Below are positions 1 to 46,792 of a DNA stretch of 64,000 nucleotides, one piece after another. The translations under genes and the position numbers were made by a program. Each line of letters begins with the position of its first letter. Position 1 is the stretch's first letter. Source of the DNA: Ostreococcus lucimarinus (Eukaryota); the NCBI GenBank assembly GCA_000092065.1, contig CP000600.1. The stretch is one strand, 5' to 3'. Under the pieces are notes generated by a model. The model had not been told where the DNA came from. It ran no database searches and saw only the letters and a list, made by a program, of their open reading frames with translations.

Positions 1-1654
1 GAGTGCGCAAACCGTTTTCGCCTTTCTCTAATGTCCATTCCCAGAATCGCACCGTCTTGTCCGCCGAAGCGGAGACGAAACCACTGTCGTCGGGAAGCAT
101 GGCGAACGCCCACACCGCGCCTTCGTGCGCCTCGTCGGGTACAGTGAGCTGGGTTCCTGCGTTCACATCAACGAGCTCGATCGCGCCTTGCTTGGTACCA
201 ATGATGGCGTGCCGACCGCCCGGGGCGAACGACGCACACAACCCGTATCCACCCTTAACGGTTCTCAAACACGCGCCGTCGGCGACATTCCACAGCTTGC
301 AGCCGTTACTCGAGCACGAAAGCACGGTTTCATCATCCGGCGAGAGTGCTACGGCACGAACATCAGAGCGATGCCCGGGGTTCTCGATGGCGTGTAATTT
401 TTCTGGCTCTTCTTCTTCGATGATTTCCCACTCTTGCACCGAGTTGTCGTCGAGCAACACGGCAACTTTGCACATCACATCCGTCCGCTTCGGCGCTTCC
501 GTCGCGAACGCGAAGCCGCGCATTTTAGTTTTGGTCGTGACCGTTGATGCGAGTTCCAGCTCATCCCCCGCGCTTCGTGCGCCCTCTTCATCGTGCTCCT
601 CTCGGGCTTCCTTCGCCGCATCCAAGTCGCCGAGTTCCTCAGCTTCGCGCGCTTTCGCTTCCATCTTTTCGCGTTTGCGCTTCAACCGGCGCTTTTGTTT
701 CTTCATCGCTTCTTTATCGCCGCGCACGCGGTATATTTCGAGGCCGCGACCCGCGCCTTGCACGCCTAGATAGTTCCCAGTTTGATGAAACCGCACCGTC
801 ATCGCTCGTCCCTTTGCGGCGCGCGTCACCGTTCCCATTCGCACCAACGGCGACTCTTGATCGTACCCATCTCTTGACTCATCGCAGTCATACACATGTA
901 GCTTATCATCCCACGTTCCGATCACGCATCGCGTCTGCGTTGGGTTGACGTCTAAACTCCACGTCTCGCCCTCGAACCCCGTGCACGTCTGCGTGCACGC
1001 TCTCGTCCCCAAATCCCAAACTTTCACGTAGCCATCCTTACTCGTCGACACCACCTTTCGCCCGAATAGCTCAGCGCTCTTGTGCATTTTCCCATCGATG
1101 ATGACCACGTCCGTGATTTGATCGCGATGTCCTCGCAACCGCGTCAGCCCGCTCTCGGCGACTACGTCCCAAACCACAACGTCGGCGTCTCGCCCACCGG
1201 ACACCAGCAAGCTCCCGTCCTGCGAAAATCGTAGCGCGGTCACGTCGCGTTTATGTCCTCTAAAAGTCACGTCGCAGTCTAAATCACTCAACGACCAGAG
1301 TCTGATGCTTCCGTCGCTCGCCCCGCACGCGACGACGTCGCCGTTCGGCGACCTCGCGACGCACGTCACCCTCGGCGTCGCCTTCGTCACTCCGTGATCG
1401 TCTGGCTGCGGCTGTGGAATCAACGACGTATCGCGGACGCCGCGCTTCAAGTCCCAGATCCCCACGCGTTCGAGCGCGACGACGGCGAGGCGTTCTCGCG
1501 CCGCCGCCGCCGCCGGTTGCGCGTCGGAAAAATCATCATTTCCGCGCGACGTCGACGCTGGGACGTACGTGAGCGCGCCGGCGGTGTCCGAGATACCCGT
1601 CGCGACGACACCCCACGCTGCGGCTTGCTCGTAGCGCAGGTACGCCTTGACCAT
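1..1654 (-). CDS. WDR3: WD40-repeat protein, U3 snoRNP / SSU processome component WDR3/UTP12 (Dip2). 5' part only; the gene runs off the window start.
   Basis: Minus-strand translation from the ATG (revcomp CAT at 1652-1654) gives MVKAYLRYEQAAAWGVVATGISD..ALTYVP..LAVVALERVGIWDLKRG, matching the WDR3/Dip2 N-terminus. Multiple WD repeats follow, with no stop through to position 1. The ORF track omits it because it is edge-truncated. Confidence 0.7.
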   Translation of the reverse strand, partial: MVKAYLRYEQAAAWGVVATGISDTAGALTYVPASTSRGNDDFSDAQPAAAAARERLAVVALERVGIWDLKRGVRDTSLIPQPQPDDHGVTKATPRVTCVARSPNGDVVACGASDGSIRLWSLSDLDCDVTFRGHKRDVTALRFSQDGSLLVSGGRDADVVVWDVVAESGLTRLRGHRDQITDVVIIDGKMHKSAELFGRKVVSTSKDGYVKVWDLGTRACTQTCTGFEGETWSLDVNPTQTRCVIGTWDDKLHVYDCDESRDGYDQESPLVRMGTVTRAAKGRAMTVRFHQTGNYLGVQGAGRGLEIYRVRGDKEAMKKQKRRLKRKREKMEAKAREAEELGDLDAAKEAREEHDEEGARSAGDELELASTVTTKTKMRGFAFATEAPKRTDVMCKVAVLLDDNSVQEWEIIEEEEPEKLHAIENPGHRSDVRAVALSPDDETVLSCSSNGCKLWNVADGACLRTVKGGYGLCASFAPGGRHAIIGTKQGAIELVDVNAGTQLTVPDEAHEGAVWAFAMLPDDSGFVSASADKTVRFWEWTLEKGENGLRT

Positions 1655-1799
1655 GTCGAGCGGGACGCGGTGAATTGTGAAGCGCGAGCGGGACGGCGCT
1701 CGAGGACCGCGCGGCGACGTCGAGGCCGAATCAAAGAGCGATCGAAAAGCGCGCGCGTGTGAAGTAAAATTAATTATGTCGTGATGTGACGCCACGTGA

Positions 1800-2537
1800 T
1801 CAACGGAAGATTTTAAAGCCGTCGGCGACCGCGCGCATTTCTGCTTCGGCGTCGTCGTATCGTTCGGCGTCCTCCTCCACGGTCAACGTGTAAAGCGTGC
1901 TCGATCCAGCGTCGTCCACGTCCAGGGCTAACGTGCACTGAATCACGCGCCTGACGCCCAGCACGTTCTTTTCGTACACGATGTCGTAGTACTCGATCGA
2001 ATCTTTTCGACGTTCGGCGAACACGCGCAGTTTGGCGTTCGCCTTGCCGCGCGACTTTTTATTTTCAGAATCCACCAAACGCGCCGCCACGTCCTCGATC
2101 GAACCTATGTCGCGCAAACTCCGCGGCCCGCCGCTCGAGGCGGTCTGCTTACTCAGCGTGATCGTGTTCCCCGCCAACCCAAAACGTTTGTCCCGCAGCA
2201 GCGTCTCGTACGTCTTGCCCGAGGCGCTGTCCCCCAGATCGATCTCTTCGAAGTACTCCGGCACGTTACCGACGCGAAACGAGCGCGTCTCCACGCTAAA
2301 CGTCCGCGTTTCCTTCGTCGCGTCGCCCTCGTCGCGCGCTCGCGCGTCTTTCGCGAGCAGCGGGAGCAAACTCAACTGTAAACCTCGCGCAAAGCGTCGT
2401 CGAGTCGTCGTCGCTCCCGCGCGCGCGTCGTCGCTCCCGCGCGCGCGCGCCGCGGCCGACCGTTTCGCGTCGCGGCGTCGCTCGCGCCGCGGCGCCGCGC
2501 GAGTCGCCGCGCGCGCGCCGATCGGCGAAGCGCGCAT
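1800..2537 (-). CDS. PsbP-domain (PsbP-like, thylakoid-lumen) protein with an Arg/Ala-rich transit peptide
   Basis: ORF 1800..2585 (-). The first in-frame ATG is at 2535-2537 (the ORF track start is GTG). The C-terminal region (YETLLRDKRFGLAGNTITL..EYYDIVYEKNVLGVRRVIQ) resembles the PsbP/Mog1 fold. The N-terminus is R/A/S/T-rich. Confidence 0.45.
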   Translation of the reverse strand: MRASPIGARAATRAAPRRERRRDAKRSAAARARGSDDARAGATTTRRRFARGLQLSLLPLLAKDARARDEGDATKETRTFSVETRSFRVGNVPEYFEEIDLGDSASGKTYETLLRDKRFGLAGNTITLSKQTASSGGPRSLRDIGSIEDVAARLVDSENKKSRGKANAKLRVFAERRKDSIEYYDIVYEKNVLGVRRVIQCTLALDVDDAGSSTLYTLTVEEDAERYDDAEAEMRAVADGFKIFR

Positions 2538-2601
2538 CGGTTCGAACGTCCGACAGTGCCGCGCGCGCGCGAGACGAAGCGTCACTTTGCGCGGTGCGTC
2601 C

Positions 2602-2615
2602 TATTTTTAAAGAGC
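2602..2615. promoter_or_regulatory. AT-rich TATA-like element (CCTATTTTTAAAGAG) in the divergent spacer between the PsbP-like gene (ATG 2537, -) and the hypothetical gene (ATG 2663, +)
   Basis: It is the only AT-rich island in a >75% GC spacer, lying 50-65 nt from both ATGs. Confidence 0.3.
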
Positions 2616-2662
2616 GCGCGCGCGCGCGCGCCGCGGGCGCGCGGCGGCCGCGCGCGCGCGCG

Positions 2663-4777
2663 ATGGCGCGAGACGCCGTCGTCGAGCGCCGGTCGTCGGC
2701 GCGCGCGACGCCGCGCGTCGCCGCGCGCTCGGAGAGCCGCGCGGGACATCGCTCGCGTCGGCTGGAACGGCGAGACGGACGCGCGGGCGCGGCGACGTCT
2801 CTCGGGTTTCGACGGGCCCGCGACGTCGCGAACGAGGACGGAATCGAGCGGTGCGAGTGGAACGCGTCGTCGGAGGCGATGTCGCGAAGCGTGCTGGACG
2901 CGGCGACGACGCGGGCGGTGGCGAAGGTGGCGGCGCTTCGCGCGGCGAACGGCGACGACGAAGAACGACGCGCGGCGGTGGAGGATGCGCTTCGCGCCGT
3001 AGATCTCGTGGCGTCGAGCGCGAAGGAGGAAGTAAAGTCGGCGATGCGCTCGGTGAAGCGAGGGCGCGCGCGGGCGAAGGAGCTACGTGAGGAACTCGCG
3101 AGGGAGACGCGGCGGAGCGTAAAGGCGGAGACGGACGCGCGAGAGTTGCGATGCGATTTGGAATGCGCGCGCACGGCGTCGACGTGCGTTGATGTAGACG
3201 GCGCGAGTCGTATTACGGCGTCTGATGACTCGAATGGTCTAGGGCACACCGACGACGACGACGATTCGCGCGTGCGGCGCGCGTCGCAGTCGTCTAGCGA
3301 ATGCGCGAGCGCGTCGCCGCGTACCGAACGCGAACTGAGCGAGGTAGCGTCATCTTTAGGGGACGCAGACGTGGTCGCGAGCCTTCCCGTATTCGTTACA
3401 GACTTAAATCGGGAATGTGGCGGTGAAACCGGGACTGCGGTCGCGGGACGCGATCGACACGTTGATGACGACGACGCGCGGTTCTTCGCCGATACGGAGG
3501 CGTTGGATTCGCCGACGACACATCGTTTGGCGACACTCATAGCGATTGAGTTAGCTCTGAGCTATGACTCAAGCATGGACGTTTCGCATCGTGTTCGCGA
3601 GTTCTTTTACAAGCGACACGGCTCGCGGACTCTCGGTGACAAACACCACCAAATGTTCACGAAGGCGCTCGCGACGATCAACGCGCAGAGCGAGTGGGTG
3701 CAGACTTTCACACGATTCAAAGAGCTCGACGCGTTCGAACTCGAGCGAGTGATGTCGACCATTCGATTCACACAGCATGTATTGATTGAGTCACCGCAAA
3801 CTGCGCCGGTATTAGGCGTTGAAGAGGCGACGCGTTCGCTGGCACACTTGCTGGCTCCCGTTCTTGGCGAAGCGGCTCCGTCGACGGAAGACGTCGACGT
3901 CATCCGGCGAAGTGCGACGCATCGAAACGGAATATCGCGCGTCTCATTCGCGCTCGTCATAGAAAGGGGGCTCGTCGGTATTGTGCGTGCGCGGACATTC
4001 GCGCGCGAGGCCATCGCAGCGACGTTCGCCAAGCGGCATCCGTATGGAACCTTGGCGCATCACCCGGCGCTCGTGAAAACACTCAGCGAAGCGTTCAAGA
4101 GCGCGGGTGCGATCGCGCGCGCGATGCTGAACGACGACGACATGATTGATCGCGTCGCTGCTGACATCGCTCGGCGAGATGCCTCGACGCAAGATTTCGT
4201 CACGCTCGAGTGCTTCGTCGACGTCGCCTCGCGCGAACTCGAGCGATCGGGAGTTTCCAAAGCCTCCGACGTCGTAACGCCGCTTCGACCGCATACAGGA
4301 CCATCGCCACCAAAAGTCGCGTCGAATTCAATTCGACTCGTCAGCTCGCTCGCGCTCGTGGCGCACGCCTGGAGCATGGCCGCCGCCGTCGTCGATCGCT
4401 GGCTTCAGAAATGCGCCGCCGACGCGCGCCGTCCCCCGGCGCCGACCGCGGTCCATCGCACCGCACCATCCATCGCGACCGGCGCGTCACGCGCACCAAA
4501 TCCCCCGAATCCACCCTTACCCCAACCCATCGACGCCTCCAAGCGTCGTCTCATCAAGCGTCACGTCGGCCGGCTCGCCAAGCTTCGCGCCACCGCCGAC
4601 TTCGCCGTGCGCGCCGCGCAATCGCTCGCCCGTCGCGCCGACGCGACCAGCGACGTCGACCGCGCGTGGCAAACGTACGCGTCGACCGTGTGCGCGTTCG
4701 AAGCCGCGTTTTTAGCGCGCAGGCGTTCCCTCGGCGTCGTCGAAGGCGCGCTCGCCGACTGTTGGCGCCCACATTGA
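2663..4777 (+). CDS. Hypothetical protein (~704 aa) with no recognisable domain. The N-terminal third is low-complexity R/A/D-rich.
   Basis: Long + ORF 2594..4777. The ATG at 2663 is the first in-frame Met downstream of the TATA-like element. The latter half has balanced composition (FFYKRHGSRTLGDKHHQMFTKALATINAQSEWVQTFTRFKELDAFELERVMSTIRF). The competing minus ORF 2296..3540 is S/R-rich and typical of antisense. Confidence 0.45.
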   Translation: MARDAVVERRSSARATPRVAARSESRAGHRSRRLERRDGRAGAATSLGFRRARDVANEDGIERCEWNASSEAMSRSVLDAATTRAVAKVAALRAANGDDEERRAAVEDALRAVDLVASSAKEEVKSAMRSVKRGRARAKELREELARETRRSVKAETDARELRCDLECARTASTCVDVDGASRITASDDSNGLGHTDDDDDSRVRRASQSSSECASASPRTERELSEVASSLGDADVVASLPVFVTDLNRECGGETGTAVAGRDRHVDDDDARFFADTEALDSPTTHRLATLIAIELALSYDSSMDVSHRVREFFYKRHGSRTLGDKHHQMFTKALATINAQSEWVQTFTRFKELDAFELERVMSTIRFTQHVLIESPQTAPVLGVEEATRSLAHLLAPVLGEAAPSTEDVDVIRRSATHRNGISRVSFALVIERGLVGIVRARTFAREAIAATFAKRHPYGTLAHHPALVKTLSEAFKSAGAIARAMLNDDDMIDRVAADIARRDASTQDFVTLECFVDVASRELERSGVSKASDVVTPLRPHTGPSPPKVASNSIRLVSSLALVAHAWSMAAAVVDRWLQKCAADARRPPAPTAVHRTAPSIATGASRAPNPPNPPLPQPIDASKRRLIKRHVGRLAKLRATADFAVRAAQSLARRADATSDVDRAWQTYASTVCAFEAAFLARRRSLGVVEGALADCWRPH

Positions 4778-12259: not shown

Positions 12260-14218
12260 ATGTCGGAAGAACCGAAAGAAATCACAGGCGCCACTGCGCT
12301 CTGCAAAGTCGCCGCGGCCGGAGGCGTCGAGGTGTGCTTCGCTAATCCCGGGACTTCAGAGATGCACGTCGTCGGCGCGCTGGCCGAGTGCGCGGATATT
12401 CGCAGCGTCCTCGTTCTCCACGAAAACGTCGCCACGGGCGCGGCGGACGGGTACTCTCGCGTCAAGCGCGACGTCAACCGCGATCGAAACGCGATGGCGA
12501 TGACTCTTTTGCATCTCGCCCCTGGCTTGATGAACGGACTTTCGAACTTGCACAACGCGAGCCGCGGCCGGAGCTCCATTCTCAACGTCGTCGGCGAGAT
12601 GAGCACGTTTCATCGAGGTAACGAAGCCCTGTTGGAGAACGATATCGAGTCGCTCGCGCGGACGGTGTCGACGAAATACGTGCACACGAGTGCGGCGGTG
12701 GATGCGATCGCGAGTGATGCTGCGGACGCGATCGAAGCGGCGCTTCGACACCGCGGCGTTGCCACGCAAATCGTGCCGCACGATTTGACTTGGTCTCGCG
12801 TGTTGGACAGTGGCAGACTGAGCGACGCCATCGCGCGCGCCGAAAACGTTCGCAATAGAAGAGACGGCGCCGAAGACGTGGTCGTCACTGATGCCGTTCG
12901 CGCTTTTCTGCGTGAAATGCTCGCTCGCGCGAAACCGTTGGCGCGCGGCGAAGTTCTCTTTTACATCGGAGGCGATGCGTGCGGCGAGGAAGAACTGCGG
13001 ATCGTCGGCGACGTCGCGGAAGCGCTCGGTGCGGACGTGGTGTGTGAGTGCTTCTTTTCTTGCATCGAACGCGGTGGCGATATGCCCAAAGTGCAGCGCG
13101 CGCCTTACTTTCCGAAAGACGCGGCGAACGCGTTCGCCAAGTACAAAGTCGTCATTTTTCTCGACGTGCCGCGACCGCCAACGGCGATGTTCGGCTACCG
13201 CGATTCTCCGACGAAGTTGTTCGCACAGAACGACGACGACATGTGGTTTGTCGATCCTCCCGGAAACGCGATGATGCTTGACGTCTTGCGCGCGCTCGCG
13301 ATGGAAGTGAATATCGGCGTTCAATGCGCGCCGAAGATGTCAGACGTCGCCGCCGTCGTTGAGCACGTCGTTTCCGAAGCGCTCGCGAAATCGGTCGAGG
13401 ACAAGGAGGATAGTTTGTGGAACTACGGGATGACGAGCACGAAGGCAGTGAGCGTGCACGACAAACTGTGCAAAGAGTTCGACATCAAGTTACAATCGAC
13501 GATTGTGTTCAATCACAATTCGATCAACGCGCTCACGAACGCCGTCGCGACAAAGCTCGGCATCGCAGACGAATCACCGAAGACTGCGATCGCACCGAAG
13601 GACGTAGACGCCAGCCCAAAGTCCACGCTCGAGGGTGAATACGTCCAAGTGCGATGCGATTCACCGACGGGCGCCTTGAACGGTGCCAAGGTGTGTCGAA
13701 TCATAGCCGGCATGCAACCAGCCGGCGCGATCGTCGTGGACGAATCGCTCACCTCTGGATCGACGTACTGGAAGGACAGCGAATCGTCGGCGCGTTTTAC
13801 GCACATGACGCTCACCGGCGGTTCCATCGGTTTCGCGAACGCCGCGGCGGTCGGGGTCGCTTTGGCCGCGCCCGAGAGACAAACGATCGCGCTCGTCGGC
13901 GACGGTTCGGCTCAATACACCGTCCAGGCCCTTTGGACGCAGGCGCGCGAGAAACTCAACGTCGTCACCGTGATCATGAACAACTCCAAGTATCAAATTC
14001 TCCGCGTCGAGTGCGCTATCCAGGGCGTTCGCGCGTCCGGAGGCGCGTGCGACTCGCTCACGAAACTCGACGACCCCTCGATCGACTGGTGCAAACTCGC
14101 CGAAGGGTACGGTGTTCGCGGCGTCCGCACCACTACCTGCGAGGAGTTTGCAGACGCGTTCGCGCGCGCGCTCGACGCCGACGGTCCGACGCTTATCGAT
14201 GCTGTTTTAGAGGCGTGA
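12260..14218 (+). CDS. Thiamine-pyrophosphate enzyme of the acetolactate-synthase family with an embedded acyl/peptidyl-carrier-protein-like insertion
   Basis: The N-terminal Pyr domain (VCFANPGTSEMHVVGALAE..ATGAADGYSRV), the central domain and the C-terminal PP domain (LTGGSIGFANAAAVGVALAAP..ALVGDGSAQYT..VIMNNSKYQI) are canonical. About 110 extra residues lie between the central and PP domains. They contain DSLWNYGMTSTKAVSVHDKLCKEFDIKLQSTIVFNHNSINALTNAV, matching the PP-binding consensus (GxDS..lfehPTi..La). Confidence 0.7.
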   Translation: MSEEPKEITGATALCKVAAAGGVEVCFANPGTSEMHVVGALAECADIRSVLVLHENVATGAADGYSRVKRDVNRDRNAMAMTLLHLAPGLMNGLSNLHNASRGRSSILNVVGEMSTFHRGNEALLENDIESLARTVSTKYVHTSAAVDAIASDAADAIEAALRHRGVATQIVPHDLTWSRVLDSGRLSDAIARAENVRNRRDGAEDVVVTDAVRAFLREMLARAKPLARGEVLFYIGGDACGEEELRIVGDVAEALGADVVCECFFSCIERGGDMPKVQRAPYFPKDAANAFAKYKVVIFLDVPRPPTAMFGYRDSPTKLFAQNDDDMWFVDPPGNAMMLDVLRALAMEVNIGVQCAPKMSDVAAVVEHVVSEALAKSVEDKEDSLWNYGMTSTKAVSVHDKLCKEFDIKLQSTIVFNHNSINALTNAVATKLGIADESPKTAIAPKDVDASPKSTLEGEYVQVRCDSPTGALNGAKVCRIIAGMQPAGAIVVDESLTSGSTYWKDSESSARFTHMTLTGGSIGFANAAAVGVALAAPERQTIALVGDGSAQYTVQALWTQAREKLNVVTVIMNNSKYQILRVECAIQGVRASGGACDSLTKLDDPSIDWCKLAEGYGVRGVRTTTCEEFADAFARALDADGPTLIDAVLEA

Positions 14219-14267: not shown

Positions 14268-15572
14268 TCAACTCTCCGTCTCAACGTGCGCCAACGCCGC
14301 GGCTCTTCGCTCTTCCGTCAACGCGTGCGAGGCAAACTTTTTGTGTCGCGAGAGCGCGTCGCTTTCTTCTCGCACGCGCGCGTCTAGAACGCTCACCGCG
14401 CGCAGTCCCCGCTTCAACGCCTCTGCGATGTCTTCGATCGTCGCCGACGATTCGTCGCCCTCCGAGAAACGCACGACGCCGTCGACGCCGTCGATGCGCG
14501 CGGCTATTTCGCCTCGCACAATCATACCGTACAACACTCTTTCCGCGGCTTCGACGTCTGAGAACCCGATCGCGCTCGCGAAATCCCCCAAGCGAAGCGT
14601 CGAGTACGTCTTCGCGAGCGAACGCGCTTTCGCCGCGACGGCTCGATCGCGCACGAGCGCGACCAATCCGGCGTTTCCGTCGAGCTCGTACGTCGCCTCG
14701 TGTCGCTCGACGACGTCGGCCAGCTCCTTCGCGGCGTCGCGTTTCTTCGCAGCCGCGAGCAGCGACGCGTACGCGTCGCACTCGCGCGACGTGGAGTACT
14801 TCTTCGCCGGCGACGAGAACGTCGACGCGTCGGCGACGGCGTCCGCCAACAGCGTCGCCAGCGCGTACTTTTTATACGCCGCCACCGCGATGGCGCTGAG
14901 CGCCGTCGCGGGCGCGCTCAGCGCGTCTTGAAACCACCGCGCGGCTTCGGGATATCGTCGCAACGCCAAGAGCGCGCGACCGCCGTAGTAGCACCGCAGC
15001 AAAAAGTCCGTCGCGTCCAGCGCCGGGGCGACGTCCATCGCCGGCGCGGCGAGAATCCCATCGCTCGCCGCGAGCGCGTCGTACGCCTTCAGCTTCAAGC
15101 ACACTCGCAAGTAACACGCATCCTGCGGCGTGATCACCGCCTCGCTCTGCGCGCGCGCCATCGCGACGTCGCGCGCGCGTCCGAGCGCCTCCGCCACCGT
15201 CCGCCCGTCCGCCCCGCGCGCGCGCCCTCGACACCAAAGCTCGCTCAAACCGCGACACACGTCCGCGAAATCCCACGCGTCGTCGTCTTCGCCCTCGCCC
15301 TCCTCGATCGACGCCTCGACGCACGCGCGCACCGCGCGCGCCGCGAATGCCTCGTCGTCCGCCTCGTCGTCCTCGTCGCCCCGTCCCTCTCGCGCCCTCC
15401 CCACCGCCTCCCGCGCGTACGCCGCGAGCGCCGCGCGCGCGAACCCACGCCTCTCTACCTCCGTCGCGCCCTCCAGCTCGCTCGCGTCGTCCACGAACGT
15501 CCGCCACCGCGTCGCCGCGTCGCCGCGTCTCTTCTCGCCGCGTCCCATCGCGTCCCGCGTCCACGCGTCCAT
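14268..15572 (-). CDS. COPS3: COP9 signalosome complex subunit 3 (PCI domain)
   Basis: The stretch CYYGGRALLALRRYPEA..AYKKYALATLL..KKYSTS..LAKTYSTLRLGDFASAIGF..VLYGMIVRGEIAARIDGVDGVVRF aligns to human CSN3 ([66 protein letters not shown]). The first plausible ATG is at 15570-15572. The ORF track extends further to an upstream Met at 15815. Confidence 0.75.
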   Translation of the reverse strand: MDAWTRDAMGRGEKRRGDAATRWRTFVDDASELEGATEVERRGFARAALAAYAREAVGRAREGRGDEDDEADDEAFAARAVRACVEASIEEGEGEDDDAWDFADVCRGLSELWCRGRARGADGRTVAEALGRARDVAMARAQSEAVITPQDACYLRVCLKLKAYDALAASDGILAAPAMDVAPALDATDFLLRCYYGGRALLALRRYPEAARWFQDALSAPATALSAIAVAAYKKYALATLLADAVADASTFSSPAKKYSTSRECDAYASLLAAAKKRDAAKELADVVERHEATYELDGNAGLVALVRDRAVAAKARSLAKTYSTLRLGDFASAIGFSDVEAAERVLYGMIVRGEIAARIDGVDGVVRFSEGDESSATIEDIAEALKRGLRAVSVLDARVREESDALSRHKKFASHALTEERRAAALAHVETES

Positions 15573-15907
15573 CGCCCCTCGCGCTCTCGCGCGCGCCGCC
15601 GAGCGCCCGCGCGGTTCCCTCGTCGCGTGCCTCGACGACCGTCGTCGTCGCGGCGCGTGCGCGAGCGTCGCGCTCGCCGTCGACGCGCGGTGTCGCGCGT
15701 CGTCGTCGCGCGCGCCGTCCGACCGCGACGACGTCGTCGGCGTCTGAATCGTCGTCGCGTCGCGCGCGCGCGTCGACGCGCGCGCGCGTCGACGCGCCTC
15801 CAGCGCCGCGCGCATCGCGTCGCGTCGTCGACGTCGACGGGGCGTCGCGTCGTCGCGCGACGCGCGATGACGAACGATCGATGCGTGGACGGTGGTCGAC
15901 GCCGACG

Positions 15908-15928
15908 CCCTAAACCCTAAACCCTAAA
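15908..15928. repeat. Interstitial telomere-type repeat (CCCTAAA)3, i.e. a telo-box-like element, in the divergent spacer between CSN3 and the glutaredoxin-like gene
   Basis: gCCCTAAACCCTAAACCCTAAAaaa, the reverse complement of the plant-type telomere unit TTTAGGG. It lies about 340 nt from each flanking ATG. Confidence 0.8.
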
Positions 15929-16004
15929 AAATTTAGGATACTTCACTCAAGGAGAGCTTTTAGATGATATATTCATCAAAGCACCACGATCTCATCCGCG
16001 CGCC

Positions 16005-16211
16005 AATCGGCGAATCGGTTTCGTGTTACGGGTCCGACGCCGTGACGGCGACGACGTGCGTGGCGCGAAATTAGGGGAAATTGCGCGCGCACGACGAAAA
16101 AATTAGTGACCATCGTCACCGACCTCAACACAAACGTGCGGTCGAACCGCCGTCGCGCGCGCGCGAATCGGCGAATCGGTTTCGTGTTACGGGTCCGACG
16201 CGTGACGTCAC
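16005..16211. repeat. Two copies of a ~45-bp direct repeat (AATCGGCGAATCGGTTTCGTGTTACGGGTCCGACGC..GTGACG) about 160 bp apart in the glutaredoxin-like gene promoter. Copy 2 ends in the palindrome GTGACGTCAC (CRE/C-box-like).
   Basis: Copy 1 at ~16005-16050, copy 2 at ~16166-16211. A 36-nt stretch is identical between them. An inverted repeat GTGACcatcGTCAC and an AT-rich TATA-like GATATATTC lie between and upstream. Confidence 0.7.
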
Positions 16212-16251
16212 GACACATCTACACATCTCGACGACGACGACGACGACGACG

Positions 16252-16400
16252 ATGGCGATGGCGATGGCGATGGCGACGGCGACGCGCTCGACGGCGACGA
16301 TGGCGAGGACGACGCGCGCGATGGCGGCGACGGCGCGCGCGGGGCGCGGCGCGCGGGCGTCCGGCGCGCGCGCGGTGAAGATGCCGATGAAGATGACGAA

Positions 16401-16436
<36 letters not shown>

Positions 16437-17427
16437 GGCCGTGCGCGAGGACGACGAGGACGCGTCGAGCGAACCGGAGATCGTCGAACCGAGCGCGATG
16501 CGCGAACCGACGACGACGACGACGACGCCGGACGCGACGTCGGAGGTGATTCGCGTCGAGACGCGCGCGGAGGGCGAATACGAGCTGCGGCAGACGACGA
16601 CGCCGAAGAGATTCGCGGTGGCGGACGGCGAGCTTCTGAACGTGGCGACGGCGGCGGCGCCGATCGCGCTGCGATGGACGAGCGGATTGATGTGTCACGG
16701 GTACGAGGCGAAGGTCGTGGACGGCGAGGTCGGCGAGGGCGAGTACGCGGTGTGGTCGGGGAGCGGGAAGGCGGTGCGGGAGACGTCGGACGTCGCGAAG
16801 TTCCCTCGCCCGGAGAAGCCGCTGAAGATGTACCAGTTTCAGGGATGTCCGTTTTGTAAGAAGGTTCGCGAGGCGGTGATTTCGTTGGATTTGGACGTGA
16901 TTTACTACCCGTGCCCGAGAGACGGGCCGGAATATCGCGAATTCGTGCGCGCCGAGGGCGGACGCGCGCAGTTTCCGTATCTCGTCGACGACAACACCGG
17001 GACGAAAATGTACGAAAGCGACGACATCATCGCGTACATGTACGAAAAATACGGACCGGGCAAGGCAAACATCGGTCCGGCGTTGACGAGCGGAACGCTG
17101 ACCTCCGTCACGGCGGGTTTGGCGCTGTTGCCGAGACTCGGGAAAGGGTCGGCGTACGCGCCGTCGAAGAAGCCGGAAAACATGCAACCGATCGTGTTTT
17201 ACGGCTACGAGGGTAGTCCGTTTTGCGTTTTAGTGGCGGAAAAGTTGTGCGAGTTGGAGCTGCCTTACCTGCAGCGGTCGTGCGGACGAGGCTCGCCCAA
17301 GCGTCAAGAGTTGTTCGACAAGCGCGGCACGTTTCAAGTGCCGTACATCGAGGACCCCAACACCGGCATCGCCATGTTCGAATCGAAGGACATCGTCAAC
17401 TACTTACAAGAGCAGTACGCGGCGTAA
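16252..17427 (+). CDS. Thioredoxin-fold protein with two glutaredoxin/GST-N-like domains (CPFC active sites), probably plastid-targeted
   Basis: Two repeats of xYxFxGCPFCKKV..D..Y and VFYGYEGSPFCVLV..PY..DPNTG..ESKDIV.YL. The N-terminus (MAMAMAMATATRSTATMARTTRA..) is transit-like. Poly-Thr runs are encoded by (ACG)n. Confidence 0.6.
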
Positions 17428-23721: not shown

Positions 23722-24687
23722 CTATCGATGCTCGTCGTCGGAGACGGTCGTCGCGGCCTGGGCGAGGGCTTTCTTCTTTAGCATCCATTTCGGCGCGTCG
23801 TCGCGGCGGGGCGACAACGCGCTTACCGAAGCCGGCGCGACGCCTTTCGCCTTGGCCTCGAACACGCCGTCGTCCTTCGCGGCGGCGCCGATGGCGACGA
23901 TGTACGATTTCTTCTCGTCTCCGGACGGAAGCGCGGTGAATATCTGCGCGAAGACGACGACGTTCGGGTCCTTCAAATTCACCGAGACTTCGCACTCGGC
24001 GTCGGCGTCCTTGAACGCTCGCTCGCACGCCTTCGCAATCTTCGGCACCATCACCGCGCGCCCGTGCGCGACGTCGGACGCGTCCGTGTCTTCCTCGCTA
24101 ACGCTAGCGGTGCTATCCACCCTCTTGTTATACACCACCGCGAACGCGATCGATTTCGATCTCGCGTCTTCGCTCCGCGCGCGCGTCTCCCGCACGACTC
24201 TCTCCACGCACGCTCGCATCCCGTCCTCGTCCCCGACCTCGAACGCGCCGTCGATCGGGTACATCTTGTATAAAAATTCCGACCCCTCGTCCTTCCCTCC
24301 TCGCACGTCGTCGAGCGCTCGTTTCACCGTCGCCGTCGCCGTCCGCGCCGAGCCGCCGCCGCTCGCCGCCATCAACAGCGCCCCCCTCGCCGGCAGTTTC
24401 ACCGGCGCGTACGCCGAGTCCTCCCCCAGCATCCGTCGCAACGCCGCCGTCGCGCTCTTCTCTCTCGATTGCCGGCACGTCGCGAACACCGCTCGGACGG
24501 CGCCGTCGCCGTCGCCGCGCTCGAGCAGCGTCGCCCGCAGCGTCGCGTACGCGAACCTCCGAAACTCGCCCGCGCCGCGCGCGCGCTTCGCGTCGCCGCC
24601 GTCGTCGTCGTCGGCGTCGTCGCGCGGCGCTCGGCGTCGCATCTGCGCCTCGGCGGCGTCGCGCAGGCGCGCCGACGGCGACGACAT
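23722..24687 (-). CDS. THUMPD1: THUMP-domain protein (THUMPD1 / Tan1-like tRNA acetylation adaptor)
   Basis: The C-terminal half has a THUMP-like fold (VSVNLKDPNVVVFAQIFTALPSGDEKKSYIVAIGAAAKDDGVFEAKAKG). The ATG at 24685-24687 is embedded in a CATG shared with a + strand ATG. Confidence 0.5.
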   Translation of the reverse strand: MSSPSARLRDAAEAQMRRRAPRDDADDDDGGDAKRARGAGEFRRFAYATLRATLLERGDGDGAVRAVFATCRQSREKSATAALRRMLGEDSAYAPVKLPARGALLMAASGGGSARTATATVKRALDDVRGGKDEGSEFLYKMYPIDGAFEVGDEDGMRACVERVVRETRARSEDARSKSIAFAVVYNKRVDSTASVSEEDTDASDVAHGRAVMVPKIAKACERAFKDADAECEVSVNLKDPNVVVFAQIFTALPSGDEKKSYIVAIGAAAKDDGVFEAKAKGVAPASVSALSPRRDDAPKWMLKKKALAQAATTVSDDEHR

Positions 24688-24847
24688 GGATTTCGGCGCC
24701 AAAACGCCGCGCAGTGACGACCGACGTCGTCGTCGTCGCGCGCGCCGGGCGCGCGCGATACCGCGCGAAGGCGCGAGCGCGCCGTTCGCATCGTCGTCGT
24801 CGTCGTCGACGGCGCGTGTGAGTCGAACGGCGCGACGGGAAGGCGCG

Positions 24848-27800
24848 ATGCGTCGACGCGTCGCGAATGTCTCGCGGCATCTTAATCTCAATCTCGCGAC
24901 GCGCGCGACGCGCGGACGGGCGATCTGGACGGCTCGAGCGGATCGAGACGACCGCGCGGATGTCGCGGCGCGAACGGGGGGGCGGGACGCGGCGGGAGAG
25001 ACGTCGGGGCGCGAGGGGGTGGAGGTGGACGCGGGGACGGCGGCGAGGCGGACGACGAACGGCGTGCGAGCGCCGTTCGAACCCTCGGGAGATCAGCCGA
25101 GCGCGATCGAGCGGTGCAAGGAGCTGCTGAGCGATCGCGATAGGAAGTTTGTGTGCCTGAGGGGGGCGACGGGGACCGGGAAGACGTACGTCGTGGCGAA
25201 CGTGTTGGCGGCGCAGCGAAAGCCGGCGCTCGTGGTGGTGCCGAATAAGACGCTCGCGGCGCAAGTCGCGCGCGAACTTCGGGCGTATCTGGGCGAGAGT
25301 CACCGGGTGGAGCTGTTTGTGTCGCATTTCTCGGTGTACGTGCCGGAGTCGTACTCCAATGGGCGGTACACGGAGAAGCGAAGCGCGATTGATTCTGATC
25401 TGGACGCGTTGCGGCATCGAGCGACGCGAGCGCTCGTTGAACCTGGGAAGACGCCCGTCGTCGTCGCGAGCGTGAGTTGCCTGTATGGTTTGGGGTTACC
25501 GACGGATTACGTAGATGCGGCGCTGACGATCGAGATCGGGGCCTCGGCGTCGACATTCGGCATCGACGGCGTCGAGGATAAGCTTCGCGACGATTTACTG
25601 TACGAGCGCGTGATGCCGTACATGGATATTGAGCGCGGTCAATACAAAACTACCGCCGCACCTGACGACGACAACTGCTTCACCATCACTATTTGGCCGC
25701 CATATTTGGAAAGTGCGTTGGACGTACGAGTTCGAGGCGACGACGGCGTCGTCGTCGCGTGTGAAGCGCGCGGACGCCGGGTCGATTTACCGCTCACGAT
25801 TTGGCCGCGCGTGCACTACATCACCCCGGCCGAGCGCCTGCAACGCGCGCTCGTGAGCATCAAGGCTGAACTGGACGAACAAACGAAGAAGCTTCGCGCC
25901 GAGGGGTGCGCGATCGAGGCTGATAGACTGGAGCAGAGAACCAACGCCGACTTGACCTTGCTGCGAGAGCTCGGTTGGTGCCCAGGCGCCGAGCACTACA
26001 GCCGTCATTTACGCTGCGCAAAGCCCGAAGAGCCGCCGGTGACGCTTCTGGATTACTTTTCATACTCAGCGGACTCCCAAACGCGTCGCGACTGGTTATT
26101 GGTCGCCGACGAATCTCACGTCATGCTGCCGCAACTTCGCGCGATGCACGGCGGCGACAGAAGCCGTAAAACGGCGCTCGTGGGCGCCGGTTATCGTCTG
26201 CCATCGGCGTTGGACAATCGTCCACTCATGAGCGAAGAATTCTGGCAGCGTGTCCCGCAGGCACTGCTCGTGAGCGCGACTCCGGGCGATATTGAGACGG
26301 AATGGGTCGGCGGCAAGTCGAGCGATGCCATGGTTGACATGGTCGTGCGACCGAGCGGCGTGCTCGATCCGCCGGTGCACGTCGTAGGCAAAGAGAATCA
26401 ACTCGAAGCGTTGGCACAGCGAGTGAATGAGAAAGCTAAGATTGGCGAACGCTCGCTGGTGTGCGTGCTCACCAAGGCGGACACCGAGGATCTGTCGATG
26501 TACTTGAACGCGCACGGCGTGCGCGCCGATTGGGTGCACTCAGAGCTCACTGCCCCGCAACGTGCCGAAAAACTGTCCAAGCTTCAACAAGGCGAACTAG
26601 ATTGTATCGTGGGTGCGCAGCTTCTGCGCGAAGGCTTGGATCTACCTTCAGTGTCGCTCGTCGCCATTTTAGATGCGGATATTCCTGGTTTCATGCGAAG
26701 CGCGCGCTCGTTGATGCAGATGGCTGGCCGGGCGGCGCGGAACAAGAACGGCGAATGCGTGCTCTTTGCGGATTCCATCACCGCCGCCATGAAAGAGATG
26801 ATGAATGAGGTCGATCGTCGTCGCGTGAAACAACACAAGCACAATGTCGACAACAATCTCGTTCCGGTGACGGCGACGTTGGGGTCTTCGACGTCGACGC
26901 TCTCTCTCTTCGACGTCATGGCGGATGAGATCGAACTTGAGAAGCAAAAGTGGGCCGTAGAACAGTCCGCTGCGCTCACGTCGCCGAAGAGTGCTGAAGT
27001 AGACACGGAAGCCGTCGATAAAGCGCTCCGAAGTTGGCGAAAGCGACGAGAAGGCGGCGGCGTACGGCCGGGTCCGAAACCGTCAGACGCGCTCAAAGAA
27101 GTGCAGGTGGAGGAGGGCGAAAAACTCGTCGCCGAGACTGTGTTAGATGCGTATGGGCTCGATGCGACGCATGTCGAGCGACTCAGGCGTTTACATCGCG
27201 ATATGCCATCGAAAACAGGAGTGTATCGATGGATCGATGAGGCTGGCAACGTGCTTTACGTCGGCAAGGCGAAGAATTTGCGCTCGCGGACTGGGCACTA
27301 TCTGTCGCCCGCATTGATACAGTCATCGCCGCGACATCGAAAGCTCTTAGCCTCAGCACGCACTCTCGATGCTGTGCTGACGCCAGGCGGCGAAGCCGAT
27401 GCGCTTGCGCTCGAAGCGAGATTAATTCAGCGCGAGCGTCCAGCGTTGAACATTTTGCTGAAGGATGCGCCGAAGCCCGAAAGCGCGCGAATCGTTTTGA
27501 CATCGAGGGATGCCGACGGGCGTATTTTCGTGGCTAAGTTTCAAAATGAGTTCGACCCCACCAGAGCCGAGAAAGTGTGGACTCTCCCCACTCGCGAAGC
27601 AGCAATTCGTATGATGGCTGTTCTCGAACGTGCGCTCGATTTGCGCGGCGTTTCGTTTCGCTCGCGTTTCGGCGAAACCGCCGCCGTCGCGCAGTGGCGC
27701 TTCGCCGCGGAAGTCGCGACTTTGGTACTCGATGCCAAGTATGACGAAGCGGTCGCGGCACTGGAAGACCGTGGTGAAGTTGCGTCGGCGCTTGAGTTGC

Positions 27801-28915
27801 GAATATCCGCCCAAGAAGAAGCCGAGCGAGGCCAGGGCGCTCGCGGTTCGCTCGCTGCGCTCCTGCAAGCGGACTCCGCGGCAAAGCAATGGAACATGGA
27901 TGTCATCGCTGCCGCGAGCAGTGGTGGTGCGACATGTGCGGTAAAGATCGTTAAAGTGCGCGACGGTACAATAGTTGACGTCTACGGTACGAGTGTGGAT
28001 GTGCCGAATGCCACAGCGGACGACGCCATCGCCGAGGCCACTCTAGCCGAAGCCGCACAGCTCGTCGCCGAGCAGATGTACTTGAGCGAATTCTCCGATC
28101 GCCCGGACATGGTGTACATCCCGCACACTATCGCAGAACCGATGAACTTACGCGCAGCGCTTCGTCACACCGGCGTCGGCGCCAACGCGACGAAGAAGAG
28201 TAAGGTCTTGCACCACGGTGCCGCCAAGGAAGGATCGCTCCTCGAGGCGCTCGCGGAAATGGCACTCGAGAACGCCGACGAATCCGCGCGCGCAACGGCG
28301 GTGAAATCCGCCGCGGCGCTTCGCTTAAAGGACGCCATCGGACTCGATGAGTCCCCCACGAGCATCGAAGGCGTGGACGTTTCTCATCTCGCCGGCCAGA
28401 ACGCTGTGACGAGCTTTGTTCGATTCGAGGGAGGTTCGCCGGCGCCGCTCAAGCATCGCCGATACCAGCTCAGTGAAGCCGTAACACCAAGCGACGACTA
28501 TGGTGGTATCGCTGAGTCAATAACCGCGCGCTTGGCGTCCAAGAGCAAACTTCCGGACGTCTTTCTCATCGACGGTGGAGTCGGCCAACTCACCGCGGCG
28601 GCGCACGCGCTTCGCGAAGGCGGCGTCGTCATCTCAAACATGATCGACGACGACAACACCCCGATCGCCGATTCCAGCGCAAAGGCACATCGAACCGTTG
28701 CCTTGTGCGCGCTCGCCAAGGGCCGAAGCAGCGGTGAAGAGGCTCTATGGGTCCCCGCGCTCTCGCCCGGAGGCGTCGTCATGGGCCGAAAAGTCGACGA
28801 CGCCCACCTTGACGCGCTAAAACTTCTCCGTTCGGTGCGCGACAGCGCCCACGCCGTGGCGCTCGGCGCGCATCGTTCTTTACGTCGCGAAGAGCGACTA
28901 AACGCCTTCGCTTAG
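24848..28915 (+). CDS. uvrB-uvrC: UvrB-UvrC fusion protein: complete bacterial-type excinuclease B helicase followed by UvrC GIY-YIG and RNase-H-like endonuclease domains. Single exon, N-terminal R/A/T-rich presequence.
   Basis: UvrB: [151 protein letters not shown]..helicase C ([29 protein letters not shown]). UvrC: [30 protein letters not shown] (GIY-YIG)..[80 protein letters not shown]. An alternative in-frame ATG at 24686 would add 54 aa and overlap the THUMPD1 start. Confidence 0.8.
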   Translation: [1355 protein letters not shown]

Positions 28916-46429: not shown

Positions 46430-46533
46430 GATTCCGCGCGCATTCGCCGTCGCAGCGCCTCGCTCGCGTCCGCGACCGCGCGCGCGGCGCGCTCGGCGTC
46501 GACGGCGTCGTCCCACGCGTCCCACGCGTCCAT
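44617..46533 (-). CDS. SMARCAL1: SNF2-family annealing helicase, SMARCAL1-like (HARP-like N-terminal region plus SNF2 ATPase)
   Basis: LIGDEMGLGKT (motif I), VVCDESHFLK (DExH), LTGTPALSRPIELF, and the helicase C motifs (LSIKAAGMGLTLTAASTVIFGE..QAEDRAHRIGQ). A HARP-like block (ASDGAWTAPAGAVRAIRDAL) precedes them. Poly-Thr is encoded by (GTC)n. Confidence 0.7.
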
Positions 46534-46792
46534 CGTCGCGACGCGCCGCCGCGAAGCGCCGCCGCGACGCCGCCGACCGCGCGCGCGCGAGTGCCTCGTT
46601 CGCGCGACGGATCGGGCGACGGACGGGTTTTAGTATTGCGTCGTATCCCAAACCCTAGGATACAATATACATATTCAACGACCCAGTAGACGCATCGGCG
46701 CGCGCTGTAGATATACACGACACCGCACTGTATGCGCACACACGCAATCCGCGAGCCGGTCGCGATCGCGGCACACCTCGACGCATCCCGCG

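Follow-up and report, generated by a model that had tools for sequence, protein, structure and literature searches.

A short interstitial telomere repeat in the divergent promoter spacer between CSN3 and a glutaredoxin-like gene of Ostreococcus lucimarinus

Results

In this work we describe a short interstitial telomere repeat found in Ostreococcus lucimarinus, a green alga, and weigh the explanations for its position in a promoter region. The repeat consists of three tandem copies of the unit CCCTAAA. It is found in a 64,000-nucleotide stretch of contig CP000600.1 (hereafter the window), within the spacer that separates two divergently transcribed genes. These encode subunit 3 of the COP9 signalosome (CSN3) and a glutaredoxin-like (Grx-like) protein. 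The genes, the repeat and its immediate borders are as follows.

14268-15572, - strand: coding sequence of CSN3 (COP9 signalosome subunit 3), with the Pfam domains COP9_hel_rpt and PCI; its start is supported by the substitution pattern
15895-15907, + strand: GTCGACGCCGACG, the conserved left junction, which ends the collinear GC-rich block on the CSN3 side and is identical in 7/7 alleles
15908-15928, + strand: (CCCTAAA)x3 short interstitial telomere repeat (direct reading, pattern search and seven-allele comparison)
15912-15920 and 15919-15927, + strand: overlapping sites that match the telo-box consensus AAACCCTAA
15926-15937, + strand: A6 run followed by TTTAGG, which with the last unit forms the inverted repeat CCTAAA-AAA-TTTAGG (direct reading)
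16252-17427, + strand: glutaredoxin-2/GST_N-type thioredoxin-fold protein with an N-terminal low-complexity presequence (Pfam: two GST_N_3 and Glutaredoxin)

The sequence read at the repeat is gCCCTAAACCCTAAACCCTAAAaaa, with its units at 15908-14, 15915-21 and 15922-28 on the + strand, a G before them and AAA after. An earlier interpretation, made from the letters alone and here called the sequence-only reading, had reported an exact (CCCTAAA)x3 array at 15908-15928, midway between a divergent CSN3/glutaredoxin-like pair. Both statements are borne out. The spacer measures 679 bp; from the repeat it is 336 bp to the CSN3 ATG (15572) and 324 bp to the Grx-like ATG (16252). A search with the two-unit 14-mer CCCTAAACCCTAAA, allowing at most one mismatch, returned this repeat as the sole match in the window, and 100 dinucleotide-preserving shuffles of the sequence returned 0 matches. 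Likewise, the telo-box consensus AAACCCTAA is found twice in the window against 0.09 expected, both times within the repeat. Lone copies of CCCTAAA at 3355, 8539 and 11932 are located in coding-like sequence and are unrelated to it. The presence of a telomere repeat in a shared promoter spacer is thus confirmed.

Two further properties are evident from the array itself. It spans more than the 1.14-1.3 units of the host's own telomere repeat that define a telo box, in the required phase AAACCCTA(A). It also has the few exact tandem units, sharp junctions and lack of a degenerate halo that mark short interstitial repeats, with three units set between GTCGACGCCGACG and the A-run.

The sequence-only reading had proposed that the unit used at the chromosome ends of the species be checked. 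Three proteins encoded in the window are identical to O. lucimarinus CCE9901 entries (XP_001422665.1, XP_001422500.1 and XP_001422675.1). The telomere motif published for O. lucimarinus is CCCTAAA (Fajkus et al. 2021, PMC8287931, Table 1), and its POT1 protein (OlPOT1) binds GGGTTTAGGGT (PMC2794166). Given this published motif and the binding by OlPOT1, the unit of the repeat is the species' own telomere unit.

Is the repeat a stable feature of the species? We compared seven independent alleles, namely that of the window and those of L003/L010 (metagenome-assembled genome, NCBI), L004 (ENA), and L005, L008, L009 and L011 (JGI metagenomes). In all seven, GTCGACGCCGACG followed by CCCTAAACCCTAAACCCT is found at the same place. 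Three exact units are present in five of the seven, window included; the third unit reads CCCTgAA in L003 and CCCTAcg in L004, and the first 18 nt of the repeat are invariant throughout. An assembly artefact that joined a telomere to internal sequence had been raised as a possible undoing of the observation. Because the same junctions recur in seven independent assemblies that stem from different projects and samples, and are bordered on either side by unique sequence and syntenic genes, this explanation is excluded and retains next to no probability.

The alleles are collinear on the left of the repeat. On its right no alignment is possible and the structure is different in almost every one, with collinearity stopping exactly at the 3′ edge of the repeat. 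An AT-rich segment is found here in three of the alleles (the window, L005 and L008, where it measures 68, 71 or 90 nt) and is absent from L003, L004, L009 and L011. A module that lies further towards the Grx-like gene is present in two copies in five alleles and in a single copy in L003 and L004. An A-run abuts the repeat in 5/7 alleles; it is followed by TTTAGG in the window and L005 only, and by TTTACG in L008. There is no copy-number slippage of the repeat among the seven alleles, though the DNA directly 3′ of it is rearranged in nearly all of them. As a sign of constraint this is suggestive but no more.

A more formal assessment is possible from the left flank. Between 50 and 336 bp left of the repeat, the alignment holds ~0.14-0.16 segregating sites per bp, from which ~2.6 are expected in 18 bp; the probability of seeing none is ~0.07. 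Other invariant runs of ~30 bp are found in the same seven-allele alignment. Special constraint on the repeat is therefore not demonstrable from these seven alleles.

Two of the alleles call for comment. In L008 (Ga0206682_10000364, 386-3364) the proximal copy of the module is followed by unrelated GC-rich DNA in place of the Grx-like gene, which points either to a rearrangement of the allele or to a metagenome contig that is chimeric. In L004 (ENA contig_13684) the open reading frames (ORFs) of CSN3 and Slu7 are each split in two and the spacer has many 1-nt indels. Both the splits and the indels are probably long-read assembly errors, and indel evidence from L004 was left out.

The age of the repeat can be gauged from related lineages. 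The gene order thiamine pyrophosphate (TPP) enzyme - CSN3 - Grx-like - Dcc1 - Slu7 - PSD13 is kept in L012, L006 and L013/L014; L012 shares a 90% protein cluster with O. tauri proteins and represents an O. tauri-like lineage. In all three lineages the CSN3-Grx spacer measures 40-110 bp and contains no telomere motif. Since the same gene pair in these relatives has a short spacer without the motif, the repeat appears to have been gained within the O. lucimarinus clade and not to be ancestral to the genus. The short outgroup spacers do not align with the 679-bp spacer, and the ancestral empty site cannot be reconstructed from them.

A telo-type motif, AACCCTAAA, is also found on the sense strand ~250 bp upstream of the Grx orthologue in L015/L016 (3751-3759). 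This GC-rich (67%), Micromonas-like genome is of a different genus and synteny, with CSN3 and the TPP enzyme located elsewhere. The motif is most simply regarded as an independent gain.

The window contains a second telo-type site:

46642-46663, + strand: CCCAAACCCTAGGATAC, in the divergent spacer between SNF2 (-) and ORF 46793-ClpC (+)

Outside the repeat, the window has AAACCCTA at this one further place (46650), and the spacer is once more divergent (-+). The surrounding sequence, CCCAAACCCTAGG, has the look of a decayed two-unit repeat. AAACCCTA is kept at this site in 8 other strains, of which 5 read AAACCCTAAG, which gives the full consensus AAACCCTAA. The neighbours are the SNF2 gene and, on the other side, an unknown ORF and ClpC. 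Homology of the two loci beyond short words was considered and rejected (local alignment score 26 against a shuffle mean of 19.2 +/- 3.3, not significant).

We observed that TAGGATAC occurs just twice in the 64 kb, each time immediately 3′ of a telo motif. At the second site this word is polymorphic (TAAGATAC, TAAGAACC), with three polymorphic sites within 6 bp (L017-L025, ~2190-2215), and it was rejected as a conserved partner motif on account of this polymorphism.

Promoter bias was tested in the 64-kb window, using an ORF-based gene map and a first-order Markov null fitted to each region. AAACCCTA is found in 2 of 39 intergenic regions where 0.049 are expected (P(>=2) = 0.0006). Of 280 words with the same composition, only AAACCCTA and ATCCCAAA match at least two intergenic regions, and AAACCCTA ranks second. 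The sole word above it, ATCCCAAA, is found in three intergenic regions (1013, 46645 and 62987) whose contexts look unrelated. The intergenic excess of AAACCCTA is equally compatible with a functional element and with promoter-biased insertion.

The remainder of the spacer is complex, as the following features illustrate.

15573-15894, - strand: GC-rich (78-82%) non-coding 5′ region of CSN3, collinear across strains and far more variable than the coding sequence
15929-15996, + strand: AT-rich segment, 35% GC, containing GATATATTC at 15966-15974; present in some strains only
15997-16055, + strand: distal copy of the module, with CCCGTAA on the - strand at 16026-16032 and without the TGACGTCA site (self-comparison and motif scan)
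16056-16157, + strand: body of the repeated unit (GTGCGTGGCGCGAAATTAGGGG...), whose middle part falls into two haplotype classes across strains (direct reading; alleles)
16158-16214, + strand: proximal copy of the module, 38-94 bp upstream of the Grx-like ATG, with the palindrome TGACGTCA at its end; found in all alleles that reach the gene

The distance between the repeat and CSN3 depends on which start codon is used. In the output of gene callers CSN3 starts further upstream, at the in-frame ATG 15815 (a 515-aa ORF); the repeat would then be just 93 bp away from the start. Upstream of ATG 15572, the 243 nt of this extension (15573-15815) differ by 4.9% between the window and L003, evenly over codon positions, with 9 amino-acid changes in 81 codons and a GC content at second codon positions (GC2) of 0.81. 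The CSN3 coding sequence differs by 0.38% (0.7% at third codon positions) and has a GC2 of 0.53. The extension is non-coding, because its divergence far exceeds that of the coding sequence, shows no codon-position bias and is accompanied by this disparity in GC2. The start at 15815 is ruled out on these grounds, and the start at 15572 chosen in the sequence-only reading is retained. The segment 15573-15815 is thus a local substitution hot spot that gene callers have wrongly included in CSN3.

The AT-rich block and the duplicated module beside the repeat had also been pointed out from the sequence. Both are real, the two module copies (15997-16055 and 16158-16214) sharing 44 nt at 98% identity, but they are not a fixed design, as their presence varies among strains. 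The AT-rich segment has no exact match among IMG/VR viral contigs and no other copy in the window, and a viral or dispersed-repeat origin was rejected on this basis. The proximal module is probably the core promoter of the Grx-like gene. The perfect palindrome TGACGTCA, of CRE/bZIP type, is located at 16203-16210, 42 bp upstream of the Grx-like ATG; it occurs in the proximal copy only and is kept in every strain that reaches the gene. Both copies carry CCCGTAA on the - strand (16026-16032 and 16187-16193), which fits the small nuclear RNA-type upstream sequence element (USE) consensus CCCRTAA published for O. lucimarinus. No small nuclear or small nucleolar RNA was detected downstream of these copies.

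Some observations on the genes of the window may also be of use. Homologues of the Grx-like protein include an Arabidopsis protein annotated as 'putative glutaredoxin-2, thioredoxin-like superfamily'. With the starts chosen here, exact-protein matches for the Grx-like protein, CSN3 and ORF 46793 returned none. The TPP enzyme at 12260-14218 (+ strand) is acetolactate-synthase-like, has an internal phosphopantetheine-binding (PP-binding) carrier domain and is kept in all Ostreococcus lineages examined. An ORF of 1674 aa at 23891-28915 (+ strand) joins, in one protein, a UvrB-like helicase (ResIII, Helicase_C, UvrB) to the RNase H/endonuclease domains of UvrC, an excision-repair fusion of bacterial type in a green alga.

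Discussion

The repeat at 15908-15928 is real, is built from the species' own telomere unit, is restricted to its lineage, and lies at the boundary of a structurally hypervariable stretch. On balance, we consider it probable that this is a genuine short interstitial telomere repeat, of the telo-box type in triplicate, that is young and was probably laid down by telomerase at a break in a promoter, and for which a regulatory role is plausible. A telomerase origin, protein binding and any effect on transcription are inferred.

How might such a repeat have arisen? We propose that the open, nucleosome-poor divergent promoter suffered a break. On the Grx side, telomerase would then have added about three TTTAGGG units to the T-rich 3′ end of the bottom strand, and end-joining would have linked this extended end to GTCGACGCCGACG on the side of CSN3. 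In five of the seven alleles an A-run, which is a T-run on the extended strand, abuts the repeat, and this fits telomerase priming. This putative origin would agree with the way telo boxes spread in the Tremousaygue/Gaspin model and with the model for short interstitial repeats of vertebrates. Once in place, the three tandem units would offer two to three adjacent sites for proteins of the telobox-Myb type (TRFL- or Smh/TRB-like), which recognise double-strand telomere repeats. Their binding would make the repeat an accessory, non-autonomous promoter element for one or both genes. That the repeat is at present a docking site for telobox-Myb proteins, which would modulate one or both promoters, is a tentative proposal, to which we give a little short of an even chance. 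If it is not, the repeat is a neutral repair scar.

The plant telo box is the obvious point of comparison. Plant telo boxes, known from Arabidopsis and rice (Tremousaygue et al.; Gaspin et al. 2010), are of the form AAACCCTA(A) and are concentrated in 5′ untranslated regions (UTRs), from -50 to +50 around the transcription start site (TSS) (Gaspin et al. 2010, PMC3022908). As a positional yardstick we took the 5′ flank or 5′ UTR, mostly from -50 to +50 and up to -60 to +140 from the TSS, and as a yardstick for trans-factors, binding by telomere-repeat Myb proteins (TRB) and also by AtPur-alpha. In plants these boxes function synergistically with site II or TEF boxes, ribosomal-protein and ribosome-biogenesis genes being the typical setting, and they are proposed to have spread by the action of telomerase on 3′ ends arising at open promoters (PMC3022908). 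Repeated telo boxes that share an orientation are frequent in Arabidopsis, where they are associated with stronger co-expression (PMC4778318). Telo-box enrichment and the co-regulation of ribosomal-protein genes have been reported as land-plant-specific, with Ectocarpus and Chlamydomonas tested (PMC3212954). We found no account of telo boxes in Mamiellophyceae in the literature searched. As for the proteins that might read them, one study reports telobox-Myb families from O. lucimarinus, in which TRFL and Smh/TRB have already parted (PMC4700174), and the origin of the TRB family has been placed in streptophyte algae (PMC10167121). The presence of TRB-type factors in chlorophytes is thus disputed between these two sources.

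The repeat resembles the plant telo box in several respects: it is made of the host's own telomere unit, contains the telo-box phase twice, lies in a 5′ intergenic spacer and is arranged in tandem in the same orientation. The intergenic excess in the window and the proposed origin from telomerase at promoter breaks are also shared. In contrast, the host here is a chlorophyte (Mamiellophyceae), while the telo boxes described so far are those of land plants; the repeat has three full units instead of 1.1-1.3; it lacks a site II or TEF partner; neither flanking gene is a translation or ribosome gene; and the motif is not conserved at orthologues within the genus.

Other systems are instructive for the same reason. 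Vertebrate short interstitial telomeric sequences were reportedly inserted by telomerase during the repair of double-strand breaks, as Nergadze et al. are said to have described in 2004 and 2007. Like the present repeat they have few exact units and sharp junctions, are lineage-specific and leave synteny intact; unlike them, the empty site here cannot be reconstructed and the position is promoter-specific. The yeast Rap1 'rpg box' is a telomere-like motif in the promoters of ribosomal protein genes. Both are telomere-like promoter sequences that could be bound by the very Myb-type protein that binds the telomeres, and the present repeat would likewise be accessory and not autonomous, although the motif and the protein family are different and no link to ribosomal protein genes exists here. 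The interstitial telomere array at human 2q13 is of the fusion type. The likeness to such arrays ends with telomere repeats at an internal chromosomal position, as our repeat has just 21 bp and no head-to-head arrays, subtelomeric relics or break in synteny.

A number of observations count against a regulatory role. At more than 320 bp from both ATGs the repeat is far away for a compact genome. Orthologous promoters in three related lineages work without it, the motif being absent from the syntenic spacers of L012, L006 and L013/14, and the third unit is decaying in L003 and L004. The lack of demonstrable special constraint on the repeat (P ~0.07) points the same way. Neither site II (TGGGCY) nor the TEF box (ARGGRYANNNNNGT) is found in 15500-16300 or 46500-46830, and a motif scan of the spacer gave no TATAWA. 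CSN3 and the Grx/GST-like gene are not translation or ribosome genes, and the genes of the window that would be expected to carry a telo box, namely those for Nop52, MCM, SSRP1 and a large subunit of RNA polymerase, lack AAACCCTA in the adjoining spacers. The plant trans-factor may itself be absent from O. lucimarinus, on the evidence of PMC10167121. Finally, the promoter excess is a post hoc result from two loci in 64 kb on an ORF-based map, and a functionless insertion bias alone predicts the same excess. The earlier claim of a promoter element stands as regards the divergent 5′ spacer, the two consensus sites and the second site in the window, and falls short in that the regulon context known from plants is missing. 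The proposed link to translation, ribosome and proliferation genes did not hold in the window.

What, then, are the alternatives? The simplest is that the repeat is a neutral scar, left by telomerase or slippage at a break, with no effect on the genes, which persists only because the clade is young. We regard this as a real contender, at somewhat less than an even chance. The absence of the repeat from three sister lineages with functional and much shorter spacers agrees with it, as do the non-significant invariance of the 18 bp relative to the flank, the decay of the third unit and the missing plant partner motifs. The spacer is, furthermore, unusually long, with structural variants in six of the seven alleles and 4.9% divergence against 0.38% in the coding sequence, which suggests weak constraint. 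A neutral scar sits less easily with a second, independent telo-type site in a divergent promoter of the same 64 kb (P ~6e-4), with a telo-type motif upstream of the Grx orthologue in a different genus, and with the lack of copy-number slippage in seven alleles despite the rearranged 3′ DNA. That said, an insertion bias directed at promoters would explain the second site and the motif in the other genus without any function. A different possibility is that an ancient telo-box regulon of the plant type, for translation and proliferation genes, was inherited from the common ancestor of green plants. The two matches to AAACCCTAA and their 5′ spacer position are what such a regulon would leave, tandem telo boxes in one orientation are typical of Arabidopsis, and telobox-Myb proteins exist in O. 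lucimarinus (PMC4700174). We nevertheless find it decidedly improbable, given that the motif is not conserved at the orthologous promoter within the genus, that CSN3 and a Grx/GST-like gene flank it without site II or TEF boxes, that the ribosome-biogenesis and replication genes of the window lack it, and that the enrichment is reported as specific to land plants (PMC3212954). The repeat might also be a fragile site, in which it acts as a fork barrier or break hot spot that drives the hypervariability on its 3′ side; this would not exclude the other explanations. In all seven alleles collinearity holds as far as the repeat and is lost at its 3′ edge, beyond which there are at least six structures, and the AT-rich insert, the length of the A-run and the copy number of the proximal unit all vary. 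Against this, a fork barrier of 21 bp would be a very short one, the variable DNA is a tandem duplication from which unequal crossing-over would yield such variants anywhere, and the second telo site has only point polymorphisms beside its motif. We judge a fragile site to be unlikely.

The remaining explanations can be given little weight. The sequence-only reading suggested an ancient point of chromosome fusion or rearrangement, and a chromosome end that healed is a related possibility; (CCCTAAA)n is indeed oriented as it would be at the left end of a chromosome. An inverted TTTAGG (TTTACG in one case) follows the repeat in three alleles and could be read as a minimal head-to-head arrangement; it is missing from the other four. 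However, the units number just three, and neither a degenerate repeat halo nor any recognisable subtelomeric sequence is present. Above all, the repeat does not mark a fusion point because gene order is the same across the site in three lineages that lack it, and this conserved synteny effectively rules out a fusion scar, leaving a very slim probability. We give an equally slim chance to the template region of an O. lucimarinus telomerase RNA gene. The + strand does carry the C-strand sequence that a template needs, and no telomerase RNA has been identified for this species, six TR-like loci having shown no homology to telomerase RNA (PMC8287931). Yet there is no USE (CCCRTAA) on the + strand within 200 nt upstream (none in 15500-15908), and the only copies are downstream on the - strand, at 16026 and 16187, in the duplicated module. 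A TATA box is lacking, three full units are about twice the normal template length, no Rfam telomerase family matches at E <= 10, and the 3′ sequence cannot be aligned between strains with 92-99% protein identity, which is incompatible with a structured, essential RNA. A telomerase-RNA template is ruled out by the lack of a USE on the right strand, the lack of conserved 3′ sequence and the excessive template length. More generally, nothing meaningful was found by Rfam (gathering threshold for the whole window; E <= 10 for 15500-16400) or by ARAGORN, and a non-coding RNA gene at the locus was rejected on these scans.

Overall, the interpretation that was made from the sequence is partly supported. 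Returning to our preferred explanation, a young repeat probably laid down by telomerase, a bolder version of it can be formulated. In this version telo-type motifs would be a recurrently gained promoter element of the Mamiellophyceae, seeded by telomerase at open divergent promoters and read by telobox-Myb proteins, and the repeat would in addition be a break-prone boundary that generates the structural promoter polymorphism of natural O. lucimarinus strains. We consider this version rather unlikely at present.

Were it true, the telo-box system would either be older than land plants or have had a parallel origin in a chlorophyte whose genome measures 13 Mb. This is of interest because the telo boxes of land plants are among the best-conserved promoter words, and link telomere-binding proteins to gene regulation and Polycomb targeting. 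If an excess of the motif were to be found in Ostreococcus promoters genome-wide, the origin of this link would lie at the base of the green lineage, or the link would have arisen twice. If there is no such excess, the locus is a dated example of a telomerase scar in a promoter. Ostreococcus is transformable and has tiny promoters, which allows clean testing of a single element. The alleles described here, with 2.6 or 3 units, one or two modules, and with or without the AT-rich insert, form a natural allelic series for the study of promoter evolution in wild picoplankton.

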